From a virus (Duplodnaviria > Caudoviricetes), in IMG/VR virus record IMGVR_UViG_3300044262_000062, positions 1 to 40,092 of that record: DNA of 40,092 bases. One strand, 5' to 3'. The notes beneath the pieces were generated by a model that did not search any database, was not told the DNA's origin, and saw only the letters and a list, made by a program, of their open reading frames with translations. Each line of letters starts with the position of its first letter. Position 1 is the stretch's first letter. Positions 26,483 through 38,520 of this stretch are shown piece by piece. The position numbers and the translations under genes are program-made.

Positions 26483-27127
26483 CTAGAAGACGGCCTTCAC
26501 CATGAAGTTAAAGGCCCCCGTCTGGAGTGGCGTTACCGCGTCTCCCTTGCTTGAGACATCAAGGTAGTAGTAACGCACCCCAAATTCAATTCCCTCATAC
26601 CTGACGCCAAACCCAACCATCGGCCGGTAGAGCATCACGTCCTTACGGGAAAACTCGGTGAGTAGATTGCCATCCGCATCCAGCACCGCAACCTGAAACT
26701 TGTTCTTGTAGGCGTAGATGCCGGCCTCCGAGAACATCGGCACGCCGAGAATCTTGAACGGACCCTGCACCGCAAGTTCTACACCAGACACGCTGCCGCG
26801 CCCCTGCACCCACACATACTGCCCGCCATCCGGCATGCCGGGCGCGTAGCGATGGTCCCCGACGACCTGTGCCATGTTGTACATCTGGCCGAGCGCCACG
26901 AACGCGGCGCGGTAGCGGTACTTGCCGACCTTCTGGCTGAGCCCGACCGACAGCGATTCGGACTCCAGATCGAACCAATGCGGAAGGCCGTCCTGATACC
27001 ACGCGCCGTCGTGCTGCGCCTGATAACTGGTGAGGCCGGCGCCGATCTCGATGTCCGCGGCTTTTGCCGGCATATAAGCAGCCGCTAACAGGCAGGCGGC
27101 GAGGATTGCATAGTTGATCTTTTTCAT
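26483..27127 (-). CDS. Outer-membrane beta-barrel protein (moron)
   Basis: AAGGAG SD; signal peptide ending AKA; alternating beta strands; C-terminal FMVKAVF with terminal Phe. Confidence 0.75.
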   Translation of the reverse strand: MKKINYAILAACLLAAAYMPAKAADIEIGAGLTSYQAQHDGAWYQDGLPHWFDLESESLSVGLSQKVGKYRYRAAFVALGQMYNMAQVVGDHRYAPGMPDGGQYVWVQGRGSVSGVELAVQGPFKILGVPMFSEAGIYAYKNKFQVAVLDADGNLLTEFSRKDVMLYRPMVGFGVRYEGIEFGVRYYYLDVSSKGDAVTPLQTGAFNFMVKAVF

Positions 27128-27168
27128 TAGTATCTCCTTCCGTTAAAGCCACCGAAAACAGCGGCTGT

Positions 27169-28827
27169 TCACACCACCTTCCCGGTGGCCGGAAAGAGCA
27201 GAGAATTAGAGAATCCTGCCCCCGCTACCACCGTTGTCTGCAACCGGCCTCCTGTTGCTATGCGCAGCAGGCCGGTGTAGACCCCTTCCAAGTTGGCCTC
27301 GACCTCCTGGCGCCCCGGTACGGGCGTCAGGGGGATATGCCCCAGCAGTTCGGCCAGGTCCGCCCGTGTGGCGGCTGTGTCGGCTGGGTGGCCGTTTTCA
27401 AGACTCTCTACCATTTTTCGGTATTCGTCCACCGCGCCCGGGATGATCTCGGGCACCGGCGCGATCGCGGCGGCCAGGTCTGCGGCTACCTGGTCGCGTT
27501 CGGTTTCGGCGGCTTCCAGGGCCCTTGTTAGGGCCTTGGAAGCCGTGCCGGCGCGGATGGCGGCCACCATGCGGCCGATCTCGGCCTCGAGGCGGTCCAG
27601 CCGCGCGCGCAGGGGCTTTGCCGGGTCGTCCCGCCGGGCGGCGCGCAGCTCGCGGGCGAGCTCGGCGCGGAAGGCTTCGACTGCATCGGGGCTGAGCAGG
27701 GTTTCCTTCACGGCGGCGAGGATCTGGCGCTCGAGCTCGGCGCGGTGCACCCGCAGGCCATTGCGGCAGACGGCCGGGCCGCGGTCTTTGTGGGCGGCGC
27801 AGCCGTACTGGCCGCGGTAGACCACCACATAGGCCCCTCCGCAGACCCCGCAGCGCAGGATGCCCGAGAGCAGGTAGGACGGTTTGCGGCCGGTCTTGAG
27901 TGGCCGGCGGGTGGCCAGGCGTTTCTCGGCGGCAGCCCATGTTTCCGGGTCCACAATCCGCAGTTCGGGCGCGGGCTGGATGATCCACTCGGACCTGTCC
28001 CGCTCGCGGCGGTGGCGCTTGCCGGTGTCGGGGTCACGTACCCAGCGGGATCGGTTCCAGATCAGCGTGCCGCCGTAGATGGGGTTGTTCAGTATCCCGA
28101 CGCCGGAGCGGCGATCGCCATAGATGGCCGACACCGCCCAGGTGCTGCCTCGAGGCGAGGGGATACGCTGCGCGTTCAGCCGGTGGGCGATTTCGCGCGG
28201 CGAGCAGCCGGCGGCGAACTGCTCGAAGATCTGCCGCACGATGCCCGCCTGGTCCGGGTCCGGTTCGCGGCGCACGGCGACGACTACCGGCCGGCCGTAG
28301 GTGTCAGTGCGGGTCGGGTCGGTGATGGGCACATGGCGATAGCCGTAGGCCCGGCCGCCGGCATTGTTGCCCTTGAGCACCTGGCCGGCGAGCCCGCGGT
28401 GGGTTTTCTCGGCGAGGTCGATGGAGTAGATGGAGTCGATCATGCCGCGCGCGCCGCGGGTGATCACGCGCTGCTGCAGCGGCATGTGGGTGTCGTAGCC
28501 ATCGGCGCTCAGCACGCGCACGCCGATGAATTCCAGCCGGCGGATGGCCAGCCCGCGTTCGTCCTGGTCGCGGCCGAGGCGGGAAAGGTCATCGAGCAGC
28601 AGCACCTGAAACTCGCCGGCCTTGGCCGCCGCCAGCGTGCGCTGGTAGTCGGAGCGCGCCGGGTTCCAGCCGGAATCGGCAAAGTCCCGGAACCGCAGCC
28701 GCACCGGCTGCCCCAGCTTATCCGCCGCCAGCTTGTCGATCTTGCGCTCCTGGTCCTCGATCGACTCGTGGCGCTGGTTGTCGGAGCTGTAGCGGGCGTA
28801 GCTGGCGGCTATGGTGTCTGGTGTCAT
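27169..28827 (-). CDS. int: Large serine recombinase (integrase)
   Basis: YARYSSDNQ catalytic Ser; DDLSRLGRD; recombinase domain; zinc ribbon LLSGILRCGVCG...YGC...C; coiled coil. Confidence 0.95.
   Translation of the reverse strand: MTPDTIAASYARYSSDNQRHESIEDQERKIDKLAADKLGQPVRLRFRDFADSGWNPARSDYQRTLAAAKAGEFQVLLLDDLSRLGRDQDERGLAIRRLEFIGVRVLSADGYDTHMPLQQRVITRGARGMIDSIYSIDLAEKTHRGLAGQVLKGNNAGGRAYGYRHVPITDPTRTDTYGRPVVVAVRREPDPDQAGIVRQIFEQFAAGCSPREIAHRLNAQRIPSPRGSTWAVSAIYGDRRSGVGILNNPIYGGTLIWNRSRWVRDPDTGKRHRRERDRSEWIIQPAPELRIVDPETWAAAEKRLATRRPLKTGRKPSYLLSGILRCGVCGGAYVVVYRGQYGCAAHKDRGPAVCRNGLRVHRAELERQILAAVKETLLSPDAVEAFRAELARELRAARRDDPAKPLRARLDRLEAEIGRMVAAIRAGTASKALTRALEAAETERDQVAADLAAAIAPVPEIIPGAVDEYRKMVESLENGHPADTAATRADLAELLGHIPLTPVPGRQEVEANLEGVYTGLLRIATGGRLQTTVVAGAGFSNSLLFPATGKVV
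27211..27230 (+). other. attP identity segment matching the 3' end of initiator tRNA-Met, inside the 3' end of int
   Basis: GAATCCTGCCCCCGCTACCA matches T-loop 3' side, T stem, acceptor strand and CCA of tRNA-fMet; rest of tRNA absent. Confidence 0.78.
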
Positions 28828-28830
28828 ACG

Positions 28831-29106
28831 CTAACCCGTATTTTCGCCTGTGTTCGCGTCTGAACGCGGCATATCATCCGTTTCGAGCCGTACCATGGTC
28901 CCGATAATAATCCCGTTCGGCTGCTTTGTGTAATGCACGGTGACCGACCACACACCGTGCTTCAAGGCACGCAGGCCGGTGACCTTTCCCGGGCATCTGT
29001 TTTCGCGATGCCACTTGCTCCGGCAGTTCTTGCCGGGCGTGGTGCAGAACCGTTGATTCTCTTTGGTCGGCTCAACCGGCTCTTTGCAGTAGTCGCAGGG
29101 TTTCAT
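28831..29106 (-). CDS. Small zinc-finger protein (possible recombination directionality factor)
   Basis: CDYC...FC...C; ATGA overlap with RT stop; ends 3 bp before int start. Confidence 0.65.
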   Translation of the reverse strand: MKPCDYCKEPVEPTKENQRFCTTPGKNCRSKWHRENRCPGKVTGLRALKHGVWSVTVHYTKQPNGIIIGTMVRLETDDMPRSDANTGENTG

Positions 29107-30311
29107 GGCGCCGGTTTCCGGGGAAACGCTTTCGTAAGGTGGCCATTCACGGCATGGCCGCGCCGGCGCAGGCGGCGTGCGAGCTCGATCCGATCGGCAT
29201 GACTGTGCGTGGCCTGGCGCAGGAGGCCAAAATAGCTGTTGGCGGTTTCAAACAACCGGCCCGCGCTCAGCCGTTCGATCCGGTTCAGGCTCGCGTTCAG
29301 TGTTCGCCGGCGCAGGGTGCGGCGCCACGGCTTGACGACCTGGCCTACAAAGTCGATGCCGCGCTCGATCGGATGCAGGATGGTTTTGGACGGGTTCAGG
29401 CGGACGGCCAGCGTTTCGGGCAGAAAGGCCTCAATGTCGGCGTGGGCGGCGTTGAGCCACTGTGGGGATTCGTGCAGGAGCACGAAGTCATCGACGTAGC
29501 GGATGTAGTGCCGGGCGCGCAGGCGATGCTTGGCGTGCTGGTCGAGTTTGTCCAGGTAGACGTTGGCGAAGAACTGCGATGAGAGATTGCCGATCGGCAG
29601 TCCGCGGCCGGCTGACTGATTGAACAGGCTCTTGTGCGGCGGGATGAGCCGCAGGCGCACCGGCGCGCTGCGGAGGATGGCGTCCTCGCGCGGGTCGTGA
29701 AACAGGATGGTGTCGGTGAGCCACATCCACCATGATTCGGTGATCCGTCGGGCGAGCCGATCGCGCAGGATGCGCTTATCGATGCTGACGAAGAAGTTGG
29801 CCACGTCGCACTTGAGATACCATGCCGGCCGCGACCAATTCTGTGTGATGCTGCGCACCTTCGCCTCGAGGCGCTGGGCGGCATAGAGCGTGCCGCGGCC
29901 GGGAATACACGCGCATGAATCGACAATGAACGAACGGTAGAACCGCGGCGCGATGCGGTTATAGAGCAGATGGTGCACGATTCGATCGCGGAAGCCGGCG
30001 GCCCAGACTTCGCGCGGTTTGGGACGGGTGATGACGAAACAGACGGACGGCCCTGGGCGGTAGGTGCAGGCCTGCAACTCCTCATGGAGCTGAATCAGAT
30101 TTCGTTCCAAGTCCTGCTCAAAGGCGAGCGCCGATAGGCTGTTGCGCTTAGTGCGGCGACAATCGAAATAGGCCGCTACCAGTTCCTCGAAAGAAAAATC
30201 AGCATGGCCGGCATCTTCACCGGGTTGATCTGCGGACGGCCCGCGCGCGGAACTCGTTGTTCTTGTGGTTGTAGTTCTGGTTGCCGTTGCCGAAGTTCTG
30301 GTTCCAGGCAT
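29103..30311 (-). CDS. DGR reverse transcriptase (start uncertain; conserved domain begins near 30200)
   Basis: KPREVWAAGFRDRIVHH, LKCDVANFFVSI, GLPIGNLSSQFFAN (DGR-type GxxxSQ), YIRYVDDFV, GIDFVG; nearest in-frame ATG (30311) is inside TR. Confidence 0.93.
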   Translation of the reverse strand: MPGTRTSATATRTTTTRTTSSARGPSADQPGEDAGHADFSFEELVAAYFDCRRTKRNSLSALAFEQDLERNLIQLHEELQACTYRPGPSVCFVITRPKPREVWAAGFRDRIVHHLLYNRIAPRFYRSFIVDSCACIPGRGTLYAAQRLEAKVRSITQNWSRPAWYLKCDVANFFVSIDKRILRDRLARRITESWWMWLTDTILFHDPREDAILRSAPVRLRLIPPHKSLFNQSAGRGLPIGNLSSQFFANVYLDKLDQHAKHRLRARHYIRYVDDFVLLHESPQWLNAAHADIEAFLPETLAVRLNPSKTILHPIERGIDFVGQVVKPWRRTLRRRTLNASLNRIERLSAGRLFETANSYFGLLRQATHSHADRIELARRLRRRGHAVNGHLTKAFPRKPAP

Positions 30312-30336
30312 AGTCCGCGTTCTCGGCGTGCTGCGT
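30228..30336 (-). repeat. DGR template repeat (TR)
   Basis: ACG CAG CAC GCC GAG AAC GCG GAC TAT GCC TGG AAC CAG AAC TTC GGC AAC GGC AAC CAG AAC TAC AAC CAC AAG AAC AAC GAG TTC CGC GCG CGG GCC GTC CGC AGA; nine AAC codons. Confidence 0.96.
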
Positions 30337-30522
30337 TGGTTCGCGCTATCTACGTCGCCCGGCCGAAGGTCCCCATACTCCTGGGTGCCGATCAGCGGGG
30401 GAACTGTGCCGGAGCGGCCCGGCACGGGATGGCCGGCGATCTCCGTGATGCACATGGCGGTGGCCTCGTGAGCCAGCGGCGCGACCAGATCAACAGTCGC
30501 ACGGTCCTGGCCGCCGTGACGG

Positions 30523-30879
30523 TCAGGCAACAGGCGACGATGCATTGTGTTTTCTCCAACCGTTGGCCTGCTTGCCGACGCTGGCGGTGAGCTCGATGGC
30601 CTTGGCGTACTGGCCGGTGGAAATGAACCGCTTGTCCCGGCAGAGCCTCAATAGCAAGTTGAGTTCTTCCAGGCGCTCGAGCAGGTTGTCGAGCAGCGGT
30701 ATCTTGGCCCGGGCGCAATTCGCCTTGAAGACCAACAGCACCAGGTCGACGCACAGATCGCGCACCCGCCCTCCGATCGATACACGGAACGGACGCGGCA
30801 TGTTCTGCACGTAGTCCGTGGCCACGCTCAAGAGGTCGTAGGCGACCTTATAAATCGGCAGTTGGGTGTGGAGGGCCAT
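30523..30879 (-). CDS. avd: Accessory variability determinant (four-helix bundle)
   Basis: LPIYKVAYDL...LLRLCRDKRFIS...VGKQANGW; between target genes and TR. Confidence 0.9.
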   Translation of the reverse strand: MALHTQLPIYKVAYDLLSVATDYVQNMPRPFRVSIGGRVRDLCVDLVLLVFKANCARAKIPLLDNLLERLEELNLLLRLCRDKRFISTGQYAKAIELTASVGKQANGWRKHNASSPVA

Positions 30880-30904
30880 GCTGATGAAAATCTAAATTGT
30901 TAAA

Positions 30905-31399
30905 TTACCGAATAATTAATCTGCGGACGGCCCGCGAGCGGAACTCGTTGTACTTGTGGTTGCAGCCCTGGCCGCCGTAGCCGAAGTACTGGCCCCAGGC
31001 ATAGTCCGCGTCCTCGGCGCGCTGCTCGCAAGACCAATACCACTCCTTCTCGAACATCTCCGGAACATTGGCGAATTGCAGCGCCTGCTCAGCGCGGAAT
31101 GGCAACGTGAAATCCCGATGACCTTCGGCTTCCATTGATGCCGCGGCACTCTTCGCTTTCTCCCATATCGTTTTATCGATGCTCTGACCGACAATCAGGT
31201 GGTAGTCCGGTTCCCCCTCACGGCCACGCATGATGCCGGCGTAGACACCGCCCTGGCCAGGCCAGGGTTGGCCGATGCGCGGGATGCTGATGCCGCGCAG
31301 GTCTGCGGGTGCGGCGCTTCCCGCGAGACGCTGCAAGACCATAGCGATAATCTCGGCGTCGGCCACCTGGATGGTGACGCCGTTGCGAGTGATGTTCAT
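30905..31399 (-). CDS. DGR target protein 1 (DUF1566/CLec-like, 164 aa)
   Basis: AAGGAG SD before ATG 31399; GHRDFTLP...WYWSCE...FRSRAVRR; VR1 at C-terminus. Confidence 0.9.
   Translation of the reverse strand: MNITRNGVTIQVADAEIIAMVLQRLAGSAAPADLRGISIPRIGQPWPGQGGVYAGIMRGREGEPDYHLIVGQSIDKTIWEKAKSAAASMEAEGHRDFTLPFRAEQALQFANVPEMFEKEWYWSCEQRAEDADYAWGQYFGYGGQGCNHKYNEFRSRAVRRLIIR
30919..31025 (-). repeat. Variable repeat VR1
   Basis: 107 bp aligned to TR 30228-30334: 12 substitutions at TR adenines plus one G>T in the 3' GC-rich tract. Confidence 0.95.
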
Positions 31400-31434
31400 C
31401 GGTTGGCTCCTTAAATTGATGAATTGTTGAATGG

Positions 31435-31938
31435 TTAAAGTTTGATCGTGCGGACGGCCCGCGCGCGGAACTCGTAGCCCTCGTGGCCGCAGTCCTGGAG
31501 GCCGTCGCCGAAGTCCTGGCCCCAGGCATAGCCCGCGTACTCGGCGTGCTGCGTGCTGGACCAATACCAGTTGCGGTCAAACGCTTCTTTCGCGCCTTCC
31601 GCGAACGCTTTCACTGTCGCGAGCTCGTGATAGGCCAGCAGCAACTGCAGGCGGCTTGGCAAGTGCCAATCGTCGAAGCCGCCGATCCGAAGTGCCAGCA
31701 TCTTCGCCGCGAGTTCGCTGCCGGCTTTGGCCATCGCCTTGGTGTTGGCGAGCCCGTCGCAATAGCTCGTGGCGCCGGCGACGCTCGTGGTTGAGCTGTT
31801 CCAGCGCATGGGCGCAATCTGGCCTTTTGCCTTCGGTGCGACGATCAGCGCATGGGGTTGATCGCCGATGAAGAAGCGGCCGGCGAAGAACCCGCCTTCG
31901 AAGCGGGTGCCGGGTTTGGGGAGTTTCAGTTTTGGCAT
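31435..31938 (-). CDS. DGR target protein 2 (DUF1566/CLec-like, 167 aa)
   Basis: GGAG SD; DGLANT, GGFDDWHLPS, WYWSSTQ...FRARAVR; VR2 at C-terminus. Confidence 0.92.
   Translation of the reverse strand: MPKLKLPKPGTRFEGGFFAGRFFIGDQPHALIVAPKAKGQIAPMRWNSSTTSVAGATSYCDGLANTKAMAKAGSELAAKMLALRIGGFDDWHLPSRLQLLLAYHELATVKAFAEGAKEAFDRNWYWSSTQHAEYAGYAWGQDFGDGLQDCGHEGYEFRARAVRTIKL
31449..31554 (-). repeat. Variable repeat VR2
   Basis: 106 bp aligned to TR 30231-30336: 16 substitutions, all at TR adenines. Confidence 0.96.
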
Positions 31939-31982: not shown

Positions 31983-32318
31983 TCACAGCATGTACCCGGT
32001 TTCACCAGGAGAATCGAGCATCCCGCCATCCGGATCATGCCCACCGTTTTGTTCATGCTGCGGGCAACGTCTATACTCGTAACGTTCAAGACTCATCACC
32101 AACCGCAGCGCCATCGCCGCAGTCTGAATGGCTTCTTTCCGTATTTCTTCTGCGCTGGTCTTGTGCGGTTCGTAGACCATCTGCAACATGGCCTTGTTTA
32201 ACTCGCCGTATTCCTCGCCGAGCACTGCCAACGCGTGAAGCGGGTCGTTCGGCCACGTCGGGAATTTCGTCGTTGCCCGCTGAACTTCATCCAGTACTTG
32301 CTCAATCGGTGCGCTCAT
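31983..32318 (-). CDS. MazG-like (all-alpha NTP pyrophosphatase fold) protein
   Basis: GGAG SD and ATGA overlap at 32318; LGEEYGELNKA...KEAIQTAAMA. Confidence 0.65.
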   Translation of the reverse strand: MSAPIEQVLDEVQRATTKFPTWPNDPLHALAVLGEEYGELNKAMLQMVYEPHKTSAEEIRKEAIQTAAMALRLVMSLERYEYRRCPQHEQNGGHDPDGGMLDSPGETGYML

Positions 32319-32488
32319 TTTCGGTTCTCCGTTTGGCGGGCACTCGCATGTCTCACAGGTCCCATCACAGCGTCCGGTTTTGTTGAACATTCGCGTTTCT
32401 CCTCATTCGCTATCCGCGCGCCCACCCGATGCTCGGCGACAATGCGCCGGGCGATTCGCTGGATCAGGCGGTGGTGGGCGGGGTGCAT
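32315..32488 (-). CDS. Hypothetical protein (57 aa)
   Basis: MHPAHHRLIQRIARRIVAEH...; fills gap with tight coupling on both sides. Confidence 0.5.
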   Translation of the reverse strand: MHPAHHRLIQRIARRIVAEHRVGARIANEEKRECSTKPDAVMGPVRHASARQTENRK

Positions 32489-33784: not shown

Positions 33785-33975
33785 ATCTGCCCCGCCGCTT
33801 CGATGCGCCGCGCCAGCGCCCGCACGTCGCTCGACTTGAGCGAGAACTGCGAGGCGGCCGAGCGATGGAACCGGGCCTCGCGTTCGTGCCAGGCGGCGTC
33901 TTTCAGCAGCTGGTCGGCCCAGCGGTTGAGGCGCCAGGCGCGGAAGCGGTTGAGGAGGGTGCGTGCGGTTTTCAT
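33781..33975 (-). CDS. Hypothetical basic protein
   Basis: GGAGG SD; ATGA overlap with MTase stop; MKTARTLLNRFRAW... Confidence 0.6.
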   Translation of the reverse strand: MKTARTLLNRFRAWRLNRWADQLLKDAAWHEREARFHRSAASQFSLKSSDVRALARRIEAAGQI

Positions 33976-35513
33976 GCGAGTTTGAAGCCTCCCTCTTGCT
34001 GTTCGGCATCGAAATTCGCGGCGACGATGGCCGCGGCGACCGGCGGACAGACGGAATTGCCGCACATGCGCACCTGGGCCGATTTGGTGAGCGGCTTGCC
34101 GTTCACTTGCGGGTTGATGACGTAGCGATCGGGGAAGCCCTGCGCCCGGTAGAGCTCGCGCGGCTCGAGCATGCGCATGCCGATGTCGGTGAGGACATAG
34201 GACTTGCCGTCGATCGTGGTGGTAACGAGCTGCAGGCGGTCTTTGGTGGTGATGGTGGGCGCCGGCTCGCGCAGGTCGCGGCCCGTGGTGCCGGAGCCCT
34301 GGCCGTAATACGGTGCCATGAGCGCGGCCACCAGTGAGGCGTGGTTGCCGCCGGCGCAGACGGTGGGCGCCGGCTGATCGAGGGCGCGCATGCGACGGTC
34401 GGCGCCCTTGAGGTTGAGCAGGTGGCCGGTAACCAGCGCCTGCGTGCAGCCTTTGCCGACGATGGTGGATACCGGCTTGCGGGCATCGTGGCCGACGAGG
34501 CCGGTGTTGTGCTGGGCCATGAAGGCGGCCACCAGGCTTGCGCCGTTGGCCGTGGCGGTGACGGTGGGCATCGGTTGCTCTACCGAGCGGGTGCGCGGAT
34601 CCTGGCCGTTGCGTTCGCCGTGGCGCGGGATGAAGTACGGCAGGGCCAGCGCCAAGTGGCCGCCCTTCGGATTCGCCGTTACGGTTCGCAGAGGTTCGTC
34701 GATTGAATGCACCGGGCTGCTACCGTTGTAGTGCGCGATCGGCACGATGAATGGCGACGCGGCCTCCAGCACGAACCGCCGAATGCCGCGCGCGATGCGC
34801 TTGAGCGTGGCCTCGGCCAGCGGGCGCTTGCGCTCGAAAATGGATGGGCACGGCAGCGACCAATCGATGCACTCGGCGGCGGTGCGGTATGGGAGCAGGC
34901 CGTGGCCGTGCGTCGGCTCCGGCCAGCGGATCGGCCGGCCATCGCAGCGGGCGATGATGAACAGGCGCTTGCGGATGGTCGGCGCGCCGTAGTCGCAGGC
35001 GCGCAGTTCGCGCAGGTCCACTTCGTAGCCAAGGTTTTGCAGCTGCTTGAGCCAACGCCGGAAGGTGAAGCCCTTGCGCAGCGGGCAGGGGCGGCCGTCC
35101 TCGAGCAGCGGTCCCCAATCGGCGAACTCCTCGACGTTTTCAAGGCAGATGACCCTCGGGCGCACGGCCCGGGCCCAGCGGATGACGATCCAGGCGAGGC
35201 CGCGGATTTTCTTCTCCACCGGCTTGCCGCCCTTGGCCTTTGAGAAATGCTTGCAGTCCGGCGAGAACCAGGCCAGCCCAACCGGGCGGCCGGCGGCGGC
35301 TTCAACCGGGTCCACCTTCCACACGTCCTCGCAGTAATGGCGCGTGCCGGGATGGTTGGCGGTATGCATGGCCACGGCCTCCGGGTCGTGGTTCACGGCG
35401 ATGTCGACACTGCGGCCGAGCGCCTGCTCGATGCCGAGCGAGGCGCCGCCACCGCCAGCGAAGTTGTCCACGATGATTTCATCCGGACGCAAATCAATGT
35501 TGGCGATCTCCAC
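33972..35513 (-). CDS. DNA cytosine-C5 methyltransferase (no cognate nuclease seen)
   Basis: GGAGG SD + GTG 35513; motif I DNFAGGGG, IV SPDCKHFS, VI ENVEEF, VIII PTIRKRLF, IX-X RELYRAQGFP...GNSVCPP. Confidence 0.92.
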   Translation of the reverse strand: MEIANIDLRPDEIIVDNFAGGGGASLGIEQALGRSVDIAVNHDPEAVAMHTANHPGTRHYCEDVWKVDPVEAAAGRPVGLAWFSPDCKHFSKAKGGKPVEKKIRGLAWIVIRWARAVRPRVICLENVEEFADWGPLLEDGRPCPLRKGFTFRRWLKQLQNLGYEVDLRELRACDYGAPTIRKRLFIIARCDGRPIRWPEPTHGHGLLPYRTAAECIDWSLPCPSIFERKRPLAEATLKRIARGIRRFVLEAASPFIVPIAHYNGSSPVHSIDEPLRTVTANPKGGHLALALPYFIPRHGERNGQDPRTRSVEQPMPTVTATANGASLVAAFMAQHNTGLVGHDARKPVSTIVGKGCTQALVTGHLLNLKGADRRMRALDQPAPTVCAGGNHASLVAALMAPYYGQGSGTTGRDLREPAPTITTKDRLQLVTTTIDGKSYVLTDIGMRMLEPRELYRAQGFPDRYVINPQVNGKPLTKSAQVRMCGNSVCPPVAAAIVAANFDAEQQEGGFKLA

Positions 35514-35515
35514 GG

Positions 35516-35773
35516 TTAGCGCCTCCACCGCCGCGCGATGCGCGGGTGTGCCCACATGGCCACCACGATGCCGGCCGGGCCGCCGGCGAGGGTGGCGGCG
35601 ATTTCGGTCCAGGTGGCCATGGGGGCGAGGCGCCACAGGAAGATCTGCGAGGCGCCGATCATGGTGCTGGTGAACACCGCCGCGACGTAGTGCCGGCCGG
35701 CCACGTTCTGCTGCTGGAAGCCGAGCGCGAAGACGGTGACGAAGGCGGCGGTGAAGAGCATGAGTTCGTTCAT
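35516..35773 (-). CDS. Small multi-TM membrane protein
   Basis: Three hydrophobic segments; FALGFQQQNV. Confidence 0.7.
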   Translation of the reverse strand: MNELMLFTAAFVTVFALGFQQQNVAGRHYVAAVFTSTMIGASQIFLWRLAPMATWTEIAATLAGGPAGIVVAMWAHPRIARRWRR

Positions 35774-35936
35774 AGGTTTTCTCTGTTTCCAGCGGGACCG
35801 GTGTTTGCGCTGGCAGGACCCATTTCCTGCCAGCGACTTCCACGGTCACTTGGATAGCGCTGTCCCGACGGCGGGCGGGGTTGGGCGTCCTTGCCGCTAG
35901 CGCCGTTGCGCTTTTCATGGGTATTGGTGAACTCTT

Positions 35937-37584: not shown

Positions 37585-38076
37585 CTACATCGGCATTGCC
37601 GTAACAATTCTGCAACTGGCTGTTTTGGCTTGATTATTCACGATCCCCATATTGATCTCGTTGACTGAAATCCGGCCTTTGGCACGCAATGGCTGATAGA
37701 TCACGGTTTGCGTGTCGCCCACGGAGGTGCCGCTGGCGGCATAAAGGCTGCAACGGATTAACGGGTCTTTCAGGTTTGTGTCTGTCGGGTTTTGGATGCG
37801 AACTCGGTGAAGAAGCATGACATTGCCGAATCCGCCCAGGCTCCACTTGTAATCGAACTTCAATTGGCGCACGGGATCCGGTTTGGCCGGCGTCGTAGAC
37901 GTTGGCGTCTCTGGACGGTCGACCATGATGACGCTCAAAAACAGAAATGCGAAAACCGCGCCGACCGTCCACGTGAGCCAGGACGTCTCTTTCTTTATCG
38001 GCGCCCCGCATTTTGGACAAGCGGCGGCGTCGGTACTCACGGTGTTACCGCAATCCTTGCATGTCGTCGTGCTCAT
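37585..38076 (-). CDS. Zinc-ribbon single-TM protein co-transcribed with cI (exclusion/defence candidate)
   Basis: CKDC...CPKCG, TM WLTWTVGAVFAFLFLSVIMV, beta-rich C-terminal domain; ATGA overlap with cI. Confidence 0.75.
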   Translation of the reverse strand: MSTTTCKDCGNTVSTDAAACPKCGAPIKKETSWLTWTVGAVFAFLFLSVIMVDRPETPTSTTPAKPDPVRQLKFDYKWSLGGFGNVMLLHRVRIQNPTDTNLKDPLIRCSLYAASGTSVGDTQTVIYQPLRAKGRISVNEINMGIVNNQAKTASCRIVTAMPM

Positions 38077-38450
38077 GATGTTTTCCGCGTTGGTGGTTTG
38101 AGTTTCGATAGGGCCTCAATGATTGTAATCGCGCGCTCTCGATCGTCATCATCCAAGGAACGAAAGCTGCGGAGCAGGCGAACTTCATCGTGATTGAACG
38201 TGCCATAGATCGACTCTGGTTCGCCCACACCGAGAGGTATTGATTTGTGTTCGCCAGTTGCAAGCCAGTGGGCATCGACGCCCAAGGCCCGCGCCGCGCG
38301 CGTTAAATTATCCCCTTCAATCGTTTTTGTCGCACCGCTCACCCATAGCGAGACCGTCGCGCGGCTGACGCCTGCATGTTTCGCGAGATCGATCTGCTTC
38401 ATGTGCGCTTTTTCAAGCGCCTCGATGATGCGGGACCGAAGGTCACTCAT
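38073..38450 (-). CDS. cI: CI-like repressor (XRE HTH, 125 aa, no S24 peptidase domain)
   Basis: MKQIDLAKHAGVSRATVSLWVSG...ARALGVDAHWLATGE; divergent from cro. Confidence 0.88.
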   Translation of the reverse strand: MSDLRSRIIEALEKAHMKQIDLAKHAGVSRATVSLWVSGATKTIEGDNLTRAARALGVDAHWLATGEHKSIPLGVGEPESIYGTFNHDEVRLLRSFRSLDDDDRERAITIIEALSKLKPPTRKTS

Positions 38451-38520
38451 GTTTAGAAATCTAAACGCATTTGTGTTTAAGAAGATTGACAAATGTTGTT
38501 GAGTGCGTTAAACATCCGCC
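38451..38520. promoter_or_regulatory. OR region: three 16-bp operators with PR and PRM
   Basis: GTTTAGAAATCTAAAC 38451-38466, GTTTAAGAAGATTGAC 38475-38490, GTTGAGTGCGTTAAAC 38498-38513; PR TTGACA(38486)-17 bp-TAAACA(38509). Confidence 0.82.

Follow-up and report, generated by a model that had tools for sequence, protein, structure and literature searches.

The phage genome studied here (the window, a single virus record of 40,092 bases) carries its predicted attP inside the gene of a large serine integrase, at a copy of the 3' end of the initiator tRNA-Met gene. If the phage inserted at C65-C66 of the initiator tRNA gene of its host, the tRNA would be restored and, at the same time, the last 16 residues of the integrase would give way to about 10 residues read antisense from the tRNA. 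We give a probability of roughly one half to the reading that this tail swap leaves the prophage with a weaker enzyme, which needs a small helical protein as directionality factor (RDF) to excise. The elements of the locus are:

27169-28827, minus strand: gene int of the large serine integrase, free-phage form (552 aa; Pfam domains and fold match)
27195-27244: predicted attP of about 50 bp within the 3' end of int (family symmetry peak at tRNA positions 66/65)
27198-27206 and 27233-27241: outer inverted motifs of the predicted attP (sequence symmetry)
27211-27218, plus strand: T-arm-like remnant on the arm moving to attR (comparison with tRNA loci)
27219-27220, plus strand: predicted crossover dinucleotide CC, equal to tRNA C65-C66 (attL/attR identity and family symmetry)
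27221-27230, plus strand: tRNA-fMet positions 67-76, predicted to be supplied by the phage to rebuild the host tRNA (comparison with tRNA loci)
27169-27219, minus strand: exchangeable C-terminal tail, residues 537-552 (tail-length, codon and model evidence)
27160-27178, minus strand: terminator-like hairpin over the int stop codon (pattern match only)

The 552-aa product of int has the make-up of a large serine integrase, with the Pfam domains Resolvase, Recombinase and Zn-ribbon, an inserted coiled coil and the catalytic Ser motif. Residues Y10, R12, S14, R83 and R86 are invariant across an alignment of 140 rows. In structure comparison the AlphaFold2 model matches the fold of the SPbeta, phiC31 and Bxb1 integrases (best VIA row among solved chains: 9dxh_A, Z 20.1, rmsd 22.8, 466 aligned). 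Domain order, fold and a symmetric attP of roughly 50 bp are shared with SPbeta SprA/SprB, phiC31, Bxb1 and A118/LI, as these are described in the available parts of PMC11722253, PMC11795197 and PMC12286644.

On the plus strand the window encodes primase/helicase, terminase, portal, capsid, tape measure and tail fibre; an amidase gene is present, too. The early region runs leftward, includes a repressor-like gene (38073-38492) and has the integrase at its end. There is no whole tRNA gene in the 40,092 bases and phage genes flank int on both sides, indicating that the window is the free, attP-containing form.

Canonical large serine integrases have their att sites outside the integrase gene. 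In the window the 20-mer GAATCCTGCCCCCGCTACCA (27211-27230, plus strand) lies within the int ORF, where it is read antisense as residues 534-539, and the ORF then continues to its own end ...VVAGAGFSNSLLFPATGKVV-stop, just as the first-pass annotation had read it. A search of the window with the 20-mer recovers its self-match only and is no test against tRNAs. The tRNA-Met(CAT) genes, predicted by ARAGORN, that overlap homologous integrases in two loci (L101 and L102) have exactly this 20-mer as their 3' end, and it differs by one mismatch from 7 of 40 other integrase-overlapping tRNAs. The initiator anticodon-stem pattern was found in 38 of the 40 integrase-overlapping tRNAs examined. A tRNA remnant holds the same place in homologous int genes across many bacterial groups, so that the match is not a chance one. 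Both the position of attP inside int and the initiator tRNA-Met as its target, as initially proposed, are therefore upheld. The 3' end of the initiator tRNA is a near-universal target site. The T-arm-like remnant (27211-27218) is dispensable for rebuilding the tRNA and often diverged in relatives. At tRNA position 72 the phage has a T, which is common to loci titled mostly Gammaproteobacteria; this may be taken as a hint at a gammaproteobacterial host.

For the position of the crossover, 40 records were searched for the displaced tRNA end (distal repeat), and candidates from 24 elements were used; the remaining 16 records had no distal repeat on the contig or only matches that were left aside. 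The attR candidate of L165 was dropped as false (its identity stopped at position 67). In all 24 elements the match of attL and attR is unbroken from the tRNA end at position 76 as far as position 65 or further inward. The identity ends at 61-65 in 18 of them and at 56-58 in the other 6, one of which (L086) has a second repeat ending at 65; one of the two L086 repeats was excluded from the tail counts. Since strand exchange must fall within the identical block, the T loop (54-60) is excluded for most elements. Inverted symmetry was calculated for 56 distinct attP cores, 33 of them natural and 23 predicted from attL and attR. On average 12.64 of 22 pairs are symmetric around 66/65, whereas none of the other 31 centres exceeds 6.79; in 46 of the 56 cores no other centre scores as high as 66/65. 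The short symmetric attP around a 2-bp crossover expected of a large serine integrase is thus found at the level of the family, the window attP alone (11 of 22 at 66/65) being tied with one other centre. From these comparisons the crossover maps to C65-C66, the junction of T stem and acceptor stem, and the T loop originally suggested as its place has to be rejected. The predicted crossover falls between the int codons G536 and A537; the first visible residue change is at 540, because the arm carries the T-stem remnant.

The part of the protein beyond the crossover behaves like a peptide that is kept in the free phage. We compared 52 non-redundant free tails (57 before removal of near-duplicates) with 104 off-frame readings as controls. 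A length of 8-27 residues was found for 47/52 free tails but only 37/104 off-frame readings, and a stop before residue 8 in none of the free tails compared to 22 of the controls. Because the attP arm also encodes the first 8 residues of the tail, the codon test was run beyond the arm, on 13 disjoint pairs chosen on arm identity. There, third codon positions differed in 62 of 91 cases and first and second positions in 87 of 182 (p=0.002); of the codon differences, 24 were synonymous and 57 non-synonymous. A strand-like motif occurs in 28/52 tails and 3/104 off-frame readings, the motif having been chosen after viewing the tails and related tails not being independent. Conservation of the YL motif was discounted as protein evidence, as it overlaps an att motif and is partly a DNA constraint. 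Taken together, the codon and length patterns indicate protein-level selection on the free tail that is real but loose, the tails remaining very variable.

The reading frame through the tRNA remnant changed repeatedly while the distal peptide stayed, which marks the tRNA-derived residues as linker or filler. On a FastTree of 113 proteins, built after removing the last 45 residues, the frame of int changed 13 times (shuffled minimum 28). PIRLK and LPASG recur in both frames: L020 has RYIPIRLK and L023 PPLPIRLK in different frames, their att motifs being in register on the DNA, and the neighbours P0002/P0006 and P0036/P0025 differ in frame with PASG kept. The selected peptide is one that the prophage cannot make. 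Lineages in the other frame simply stop (G[SC]G.RI-stop, 22/119), and the sequence comparison hence points to integration mattering as the loss of a conserved tail and not as the gain of a tRNA-encoded ending.

Alternatively it might be that there is no regulation, with the gene just overlapping attP, the tail giving a modest folding benefit, both forms being alike and control residing in transcription and the RDF. The high variability of the tails and the completion of the canonical fold by about residue 526-536 favour this, and a trivial reading of divergent C-termini was also offered for the serine integrase DsiB (McMurdie 2011, in the accessible text of PMC3146451). The length constraint, the third-position bias and the frame-compensated motifs argue for selection on a peptide out of the prophage's reach, though, and make the absence of regulation distinctly unlikely.

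In the AlphaFold2 model of the window integrase (alignment of 61 free-form sequences, mean pLDDT 90.1) residues 542-548 of the tail form a strand in a block of pLDDT 93, behind a linker (531-538) with pLDDT below 50. The integrated homologue P0022, modelled with 63 integrated-form sequences, has pLDDT below 50 over its last 23 residues (506-528). The two models are of different proteins (49% identical) and not a controlled pair; they are suggestive of a free tail that folds back as a beta strand and of a disordered integrated ending. None of the listed solved chains aligns beyond model residue 538, so strand 542-548 would be an addition to the canonical fold, and no listed solved canonical chain has a counterpart of the 541-552 tail.

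The first-pass annotation had proposed the two integrase forms as a possible directionality or stability switch, by analogy to the attP-within-repressor switches of some mycobacteriophages. A swap of this kind, changing proteolytic stability via a C-terminal degron as in mycobacteriophage integration-dependent immunity, might be read from the tails ending in Ala (13/52 free tails compared to 7/62 off-frame readings) or in AA (4/52 and 2/62), and the integrated end, modelled as disordered and being non-polar, could serve as a protease handle. However, 12/52 free tails end in K or R, the tail of the window ends in KVV, the modelled tail is an ordered strand and the integrated ending differs between frames. 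We therefore hold a degron to be improbable. With the KVV end and AA in only 4/52 tails of relatives, no ssrA-like tag is apparent and the analogy in its degron version is weak. The layout differs as well: attP lies in the serine integrase gene, and the repressor-like gene stands apart at 38073-38492. Mycobacteriophages of clusters G, N and P likewise have the C-terminus of a phage protein rewritten upon integration into a tRNA gene; according to the available text of PMC9262239, they have attP within the repressor gene and a tyrosine integrase, an ssrA-like tag is removed and no RDF is evident, in contrast to the phage studied here with its RDF candidate.

Free and integrated forms are both present in the family, as the comparison of C-termini suggested by the first-pass annotation shows. 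The C-termini of 119 homologues were classed by regular expression, giving 40 with FEPxTF[GR]L, 22 with G[SC]G.RI, 9 with GTEERT, 39 with a free-type tail and 9 other or partial ones. Wherever the contig was long enough and the tRNA intact, the FEPxTF[GR]L and G[SC]G.RI ends overlap an antisense tRNA-Met in the fetched loci. The ending VAGAGFEPxTFGL-stop foreseen for the prophage is thus the one carried by 40/119 homologues, and it is matched by a natural pair, too: the free form L117 (LVAGAGFVRYLPFRIK) does not differ from the integrated forms L116/L118-L120 before the junction is reached. Of the relatives fetched, L001 is the nearest (59% identical); it is a free form and ends GFGSYLRFRATGKVV. 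With an att site in the coding sequence and C-termini that depend on the state, the integrated form being predicted in the case of the window, the phage belongs with elements of the Mx8, SSV1, DsiB and rumA ICE type.

The GTEERT-ending clade (P0046, P0049, P0050, P0055, P0069, P0074, P0075, P0092 and P0119) suggests, on the basis of its sequences, that another tRNA has been adopted as target, which is read in the second frame. Stacked attR/attP-like remnants with a duplicated integrase end were seen in L187-L189 (G016:C18:2976200-2987600), L186, L003:1831-1967 and L170; these could stem from integrations, repeated or in tandem, that left orphan tails behind.

For the window phage itself, no lysogen was found, and in the one run holding window DNA none of the 5 contigs that cover the core has a host junction. 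Two attL-type patterns gave zero matches in metagenome contigs, and a search of viral contigs for a lysogen or junction returned L001 only; these results are compatible with a lysogen elsewhere. Annotated phage records held only distant relatives. In the run that holds the window, a 31-nt core (27212-27242) forms a four-armed graph node common to the window phage and an L001-like sibling. The window might in principle be a chimeric assembly at this shared att core, its tail belonging to the sibling's integrase, and the depths of the arms (11.7 and 8.2 left, 9.2 and 13.8 right) fit a crossed pairing equally well. The independent record L001 pairs the two arms of the sibling, however, favouring the pairing in the window, and we give very little credence to a chimera. 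Either pairing yields a free-form integrase with a similar tail, leaving the conclusions on the family unchanged.

A candidate for the directionality factor is encoded upstream of int:

32315-32488, minus strand: 57-aa ORF, one amphipathic helix, candidate RDF (family profile and complex model)

It is the best match in the window to a family of helix ORFs with the consensus P...L...LA..AA...L, which in 107 of 154 loci precede int on the same strand at a distance of up to 400 nt. Outside the seed set, members were found near int in 68/114 loci, with 11 matches elsewhere. The family has no Pfam name (1/81 members with a marginal match). The ORF of the window scores only 12.8 bits against the family profile (E 0.005), has no PHROG and no Pfam match and is 60% identical over the aligned part to the copy in L001. 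It lies 3.5 kb from int, separated from it by a diversity-generating retroelement and other genes, and the L001 copy is 0.8 kb upstream of int.

Complexes of the 57-aa protein with the tail-less integrase fragment 312-536 were modelled in three runs together with controls. The scores were 0.76, 0.77 and 0.76, compared to 0.01 for the best control, with at least 81% of contacts in common and a partner pLDDT of at least 72. The mark applied was reached by 116/157 solved and 2/215 mismatched pairs, rates which are only rough with the alignments used here. The predicted contacts are on integrase residues 376-397 and 458-494, and at the contact positions L377, F386, Y469, V473 and L494, hydrophobic residues make up 99% or more of those aligned among 140 rows. 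The helix protein is accordingly predicted by the model to bind the coiled-coil base and the junction to the zinc domain. This interface coincides with the DBD2-coiled-coil junction, a common RDF hotspot according to the accessible parts of PMC11795197 and PMC11722253, and is like that of the small partners in canonical integrase/RDF pairs described there. The good scores may reflect likeness to solved integrase-RDF structures. Given this separate RDF candidate with its predicted binding, direction is probably not switched by the exchange of the tail alone. Another ORF, of 91 aa, Cys-rich and zinc-finger-like (28831-29106, minus strand), lies directly upstream of int; it has no family match and was set aside as RDF, a clear homologue being present only in L001/L082 (one record).

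Our preferred reading, loss of the tail leaving a weaker enzyme, would work as follows. The tailed enzyme of the incoming phage would integrate efficiently, with the tail raising activity or stability. The prophage would make the tail-less enzyme only, which is likely weaker, and recombination in the lysogen would thereby be damped, comparable to Mx8. On induction, the tail-less enzyme and the helix protein, which would supply directionality, would excise the phage. The sign of the tail effect (weaker or stronger) is borrowed by analogy from the tyrosine integrase of Mx8. Instead of acting on strength, the tail might be a direction licence, the tailed enzyme resisting the helix RDF and only integrating, the tail-less one accepting the RDF and excising. 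In the model the helix protein indeed binds the tail-less fragment 312-536. The alignment with SPbeta extends to its residue 537 and to model residue 526, which places the start of the tail about 15 residues after the element equivalent to SPbeta F532, a residue important for directionality and flanked by the RDF helix in the portion of PMC11722253 available. The predicted RDF contacts, on the other hand, are on the coiled-coil base and helix 481-495, residue 516 being the only one from the C-terminal part (in a modelled fragment that ends before the tail), and we consider a licence of this kind unlikely. A wider version is tentative and, in our estimate, rather unlikely, too: a two-key switch of a widespread tRNA-fMet clade, in which a docked tail strand, present only with intact attP, would drive integration and shut out the RDF, and a new family of one-helix RDFs would unlock only the tail-less prophage form.

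The layout with attP inside a serine integrase gene is already published for DsiB, the rumA ICEs and the snf2 IME, and a change in activity is known for Mx8; the helical RDF candidate, on the strength of the models, is the new element here. DsiB of the Dehalococcoides ssrA islands has its att site inside the serine integrase gene (McMurdie 2011, PMC3146451). In the text of that paper available to us, it resembles the integrase studied here as a serine recombinase of about 540 aa, the 3' end of its gene lying over attL/attP and antisense to the 3' end of a stable RNA, and its authors considered that the enzyme is possibly fully functional only on the circle. The DsiB target is tmRNA, unlike the tRNA-Met(CAT) targeted by the window phage, and the islands co-encode a second recombinase, DsiA, in a six-gene module; no such recombinase was found among the scanned genes adjoining int. 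The available text describes divergent C-termini and mentions neither a mapped crossover nor a test for selection nor an RDF.

Streptococcal rumA ICEs (PMC4701971) and IME_Spy2096_SNF2 (PMC5357655) have att inside the serine integrase gene, too, with a C-terminus that differs between the excised and integrated state as in our case; according to the accessible parts of these papers, they target protein-coding genes, with which 3' ends are exchanged reciprocally, and not a tRNA. For the Myxococcus phage Mx8 (Magrini 1999, as reported in the available part of PMC4701971), attP lies in int, the C-terminus is replaced and the prophage form is less active. This is a tyrosine recombinase exchanging 112 residues for 13, compared to 16 for about 10 in the serine integrase described here. 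Mx8 and SSV are also treated in PMC4383910. By its title, Abe 2021 assigns a toggle role to the extreme C-terminus of SprA. According to the Islander 2015 database paper, targeting of tRNA genes is not known for serine integrases.

In the literature searched we found no published description of a tRNA-fMet-targeting serine integrase clade with attP in int, nor of the one-helix protein family; tables of TIGER/Islander could well list such elements. The available parts of PMC12884075, PMC8627217 and PMC12286644 contain nothing on such a clade. Serine integrases are among the main tools for the insertion of large DNA, and how they keep their direction is an active question. The family provides many natural pairs of forms and a candidate RDF with about 20 core residues, making the role of the C-terminus in directionality directly testable. 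If the tail matters, integrases mined from integrated prophages would be the shortened form, and the working enzyme would have to be read across attP.

Further genes around int were noted. Directly downstream (26483-27127, minus strand) lies a gene for 214 aa with a signal-peptide-like start and an aromatic C-terminus; it has no Pfam or PHROG match and, judged by its sequence, resembles an outer-membrane beta-barrel moron. L001 has an unrelated small gene at the equivalent position. The diversity-generating retroelement (29103-31938, minus strand) comprises a reverse transcriptase (29103-30545), Avd (30523-30879), a template repeat (30231-30351) and two variable repeats (30922-31042 and 31449-31569), whose mismatches to the template are mostly at A (18/26 and 21/27). 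Its targets are two short early-region genes, one with a weak Lcl_C match, and not tail fibres. A C5 DNA methylase gene is located at 33972-35918 (minus strand). No terminal repeat remains at the ends of the record, and these two ends look like halves of one methylase-like gene, which suggests a circularly cut genome.
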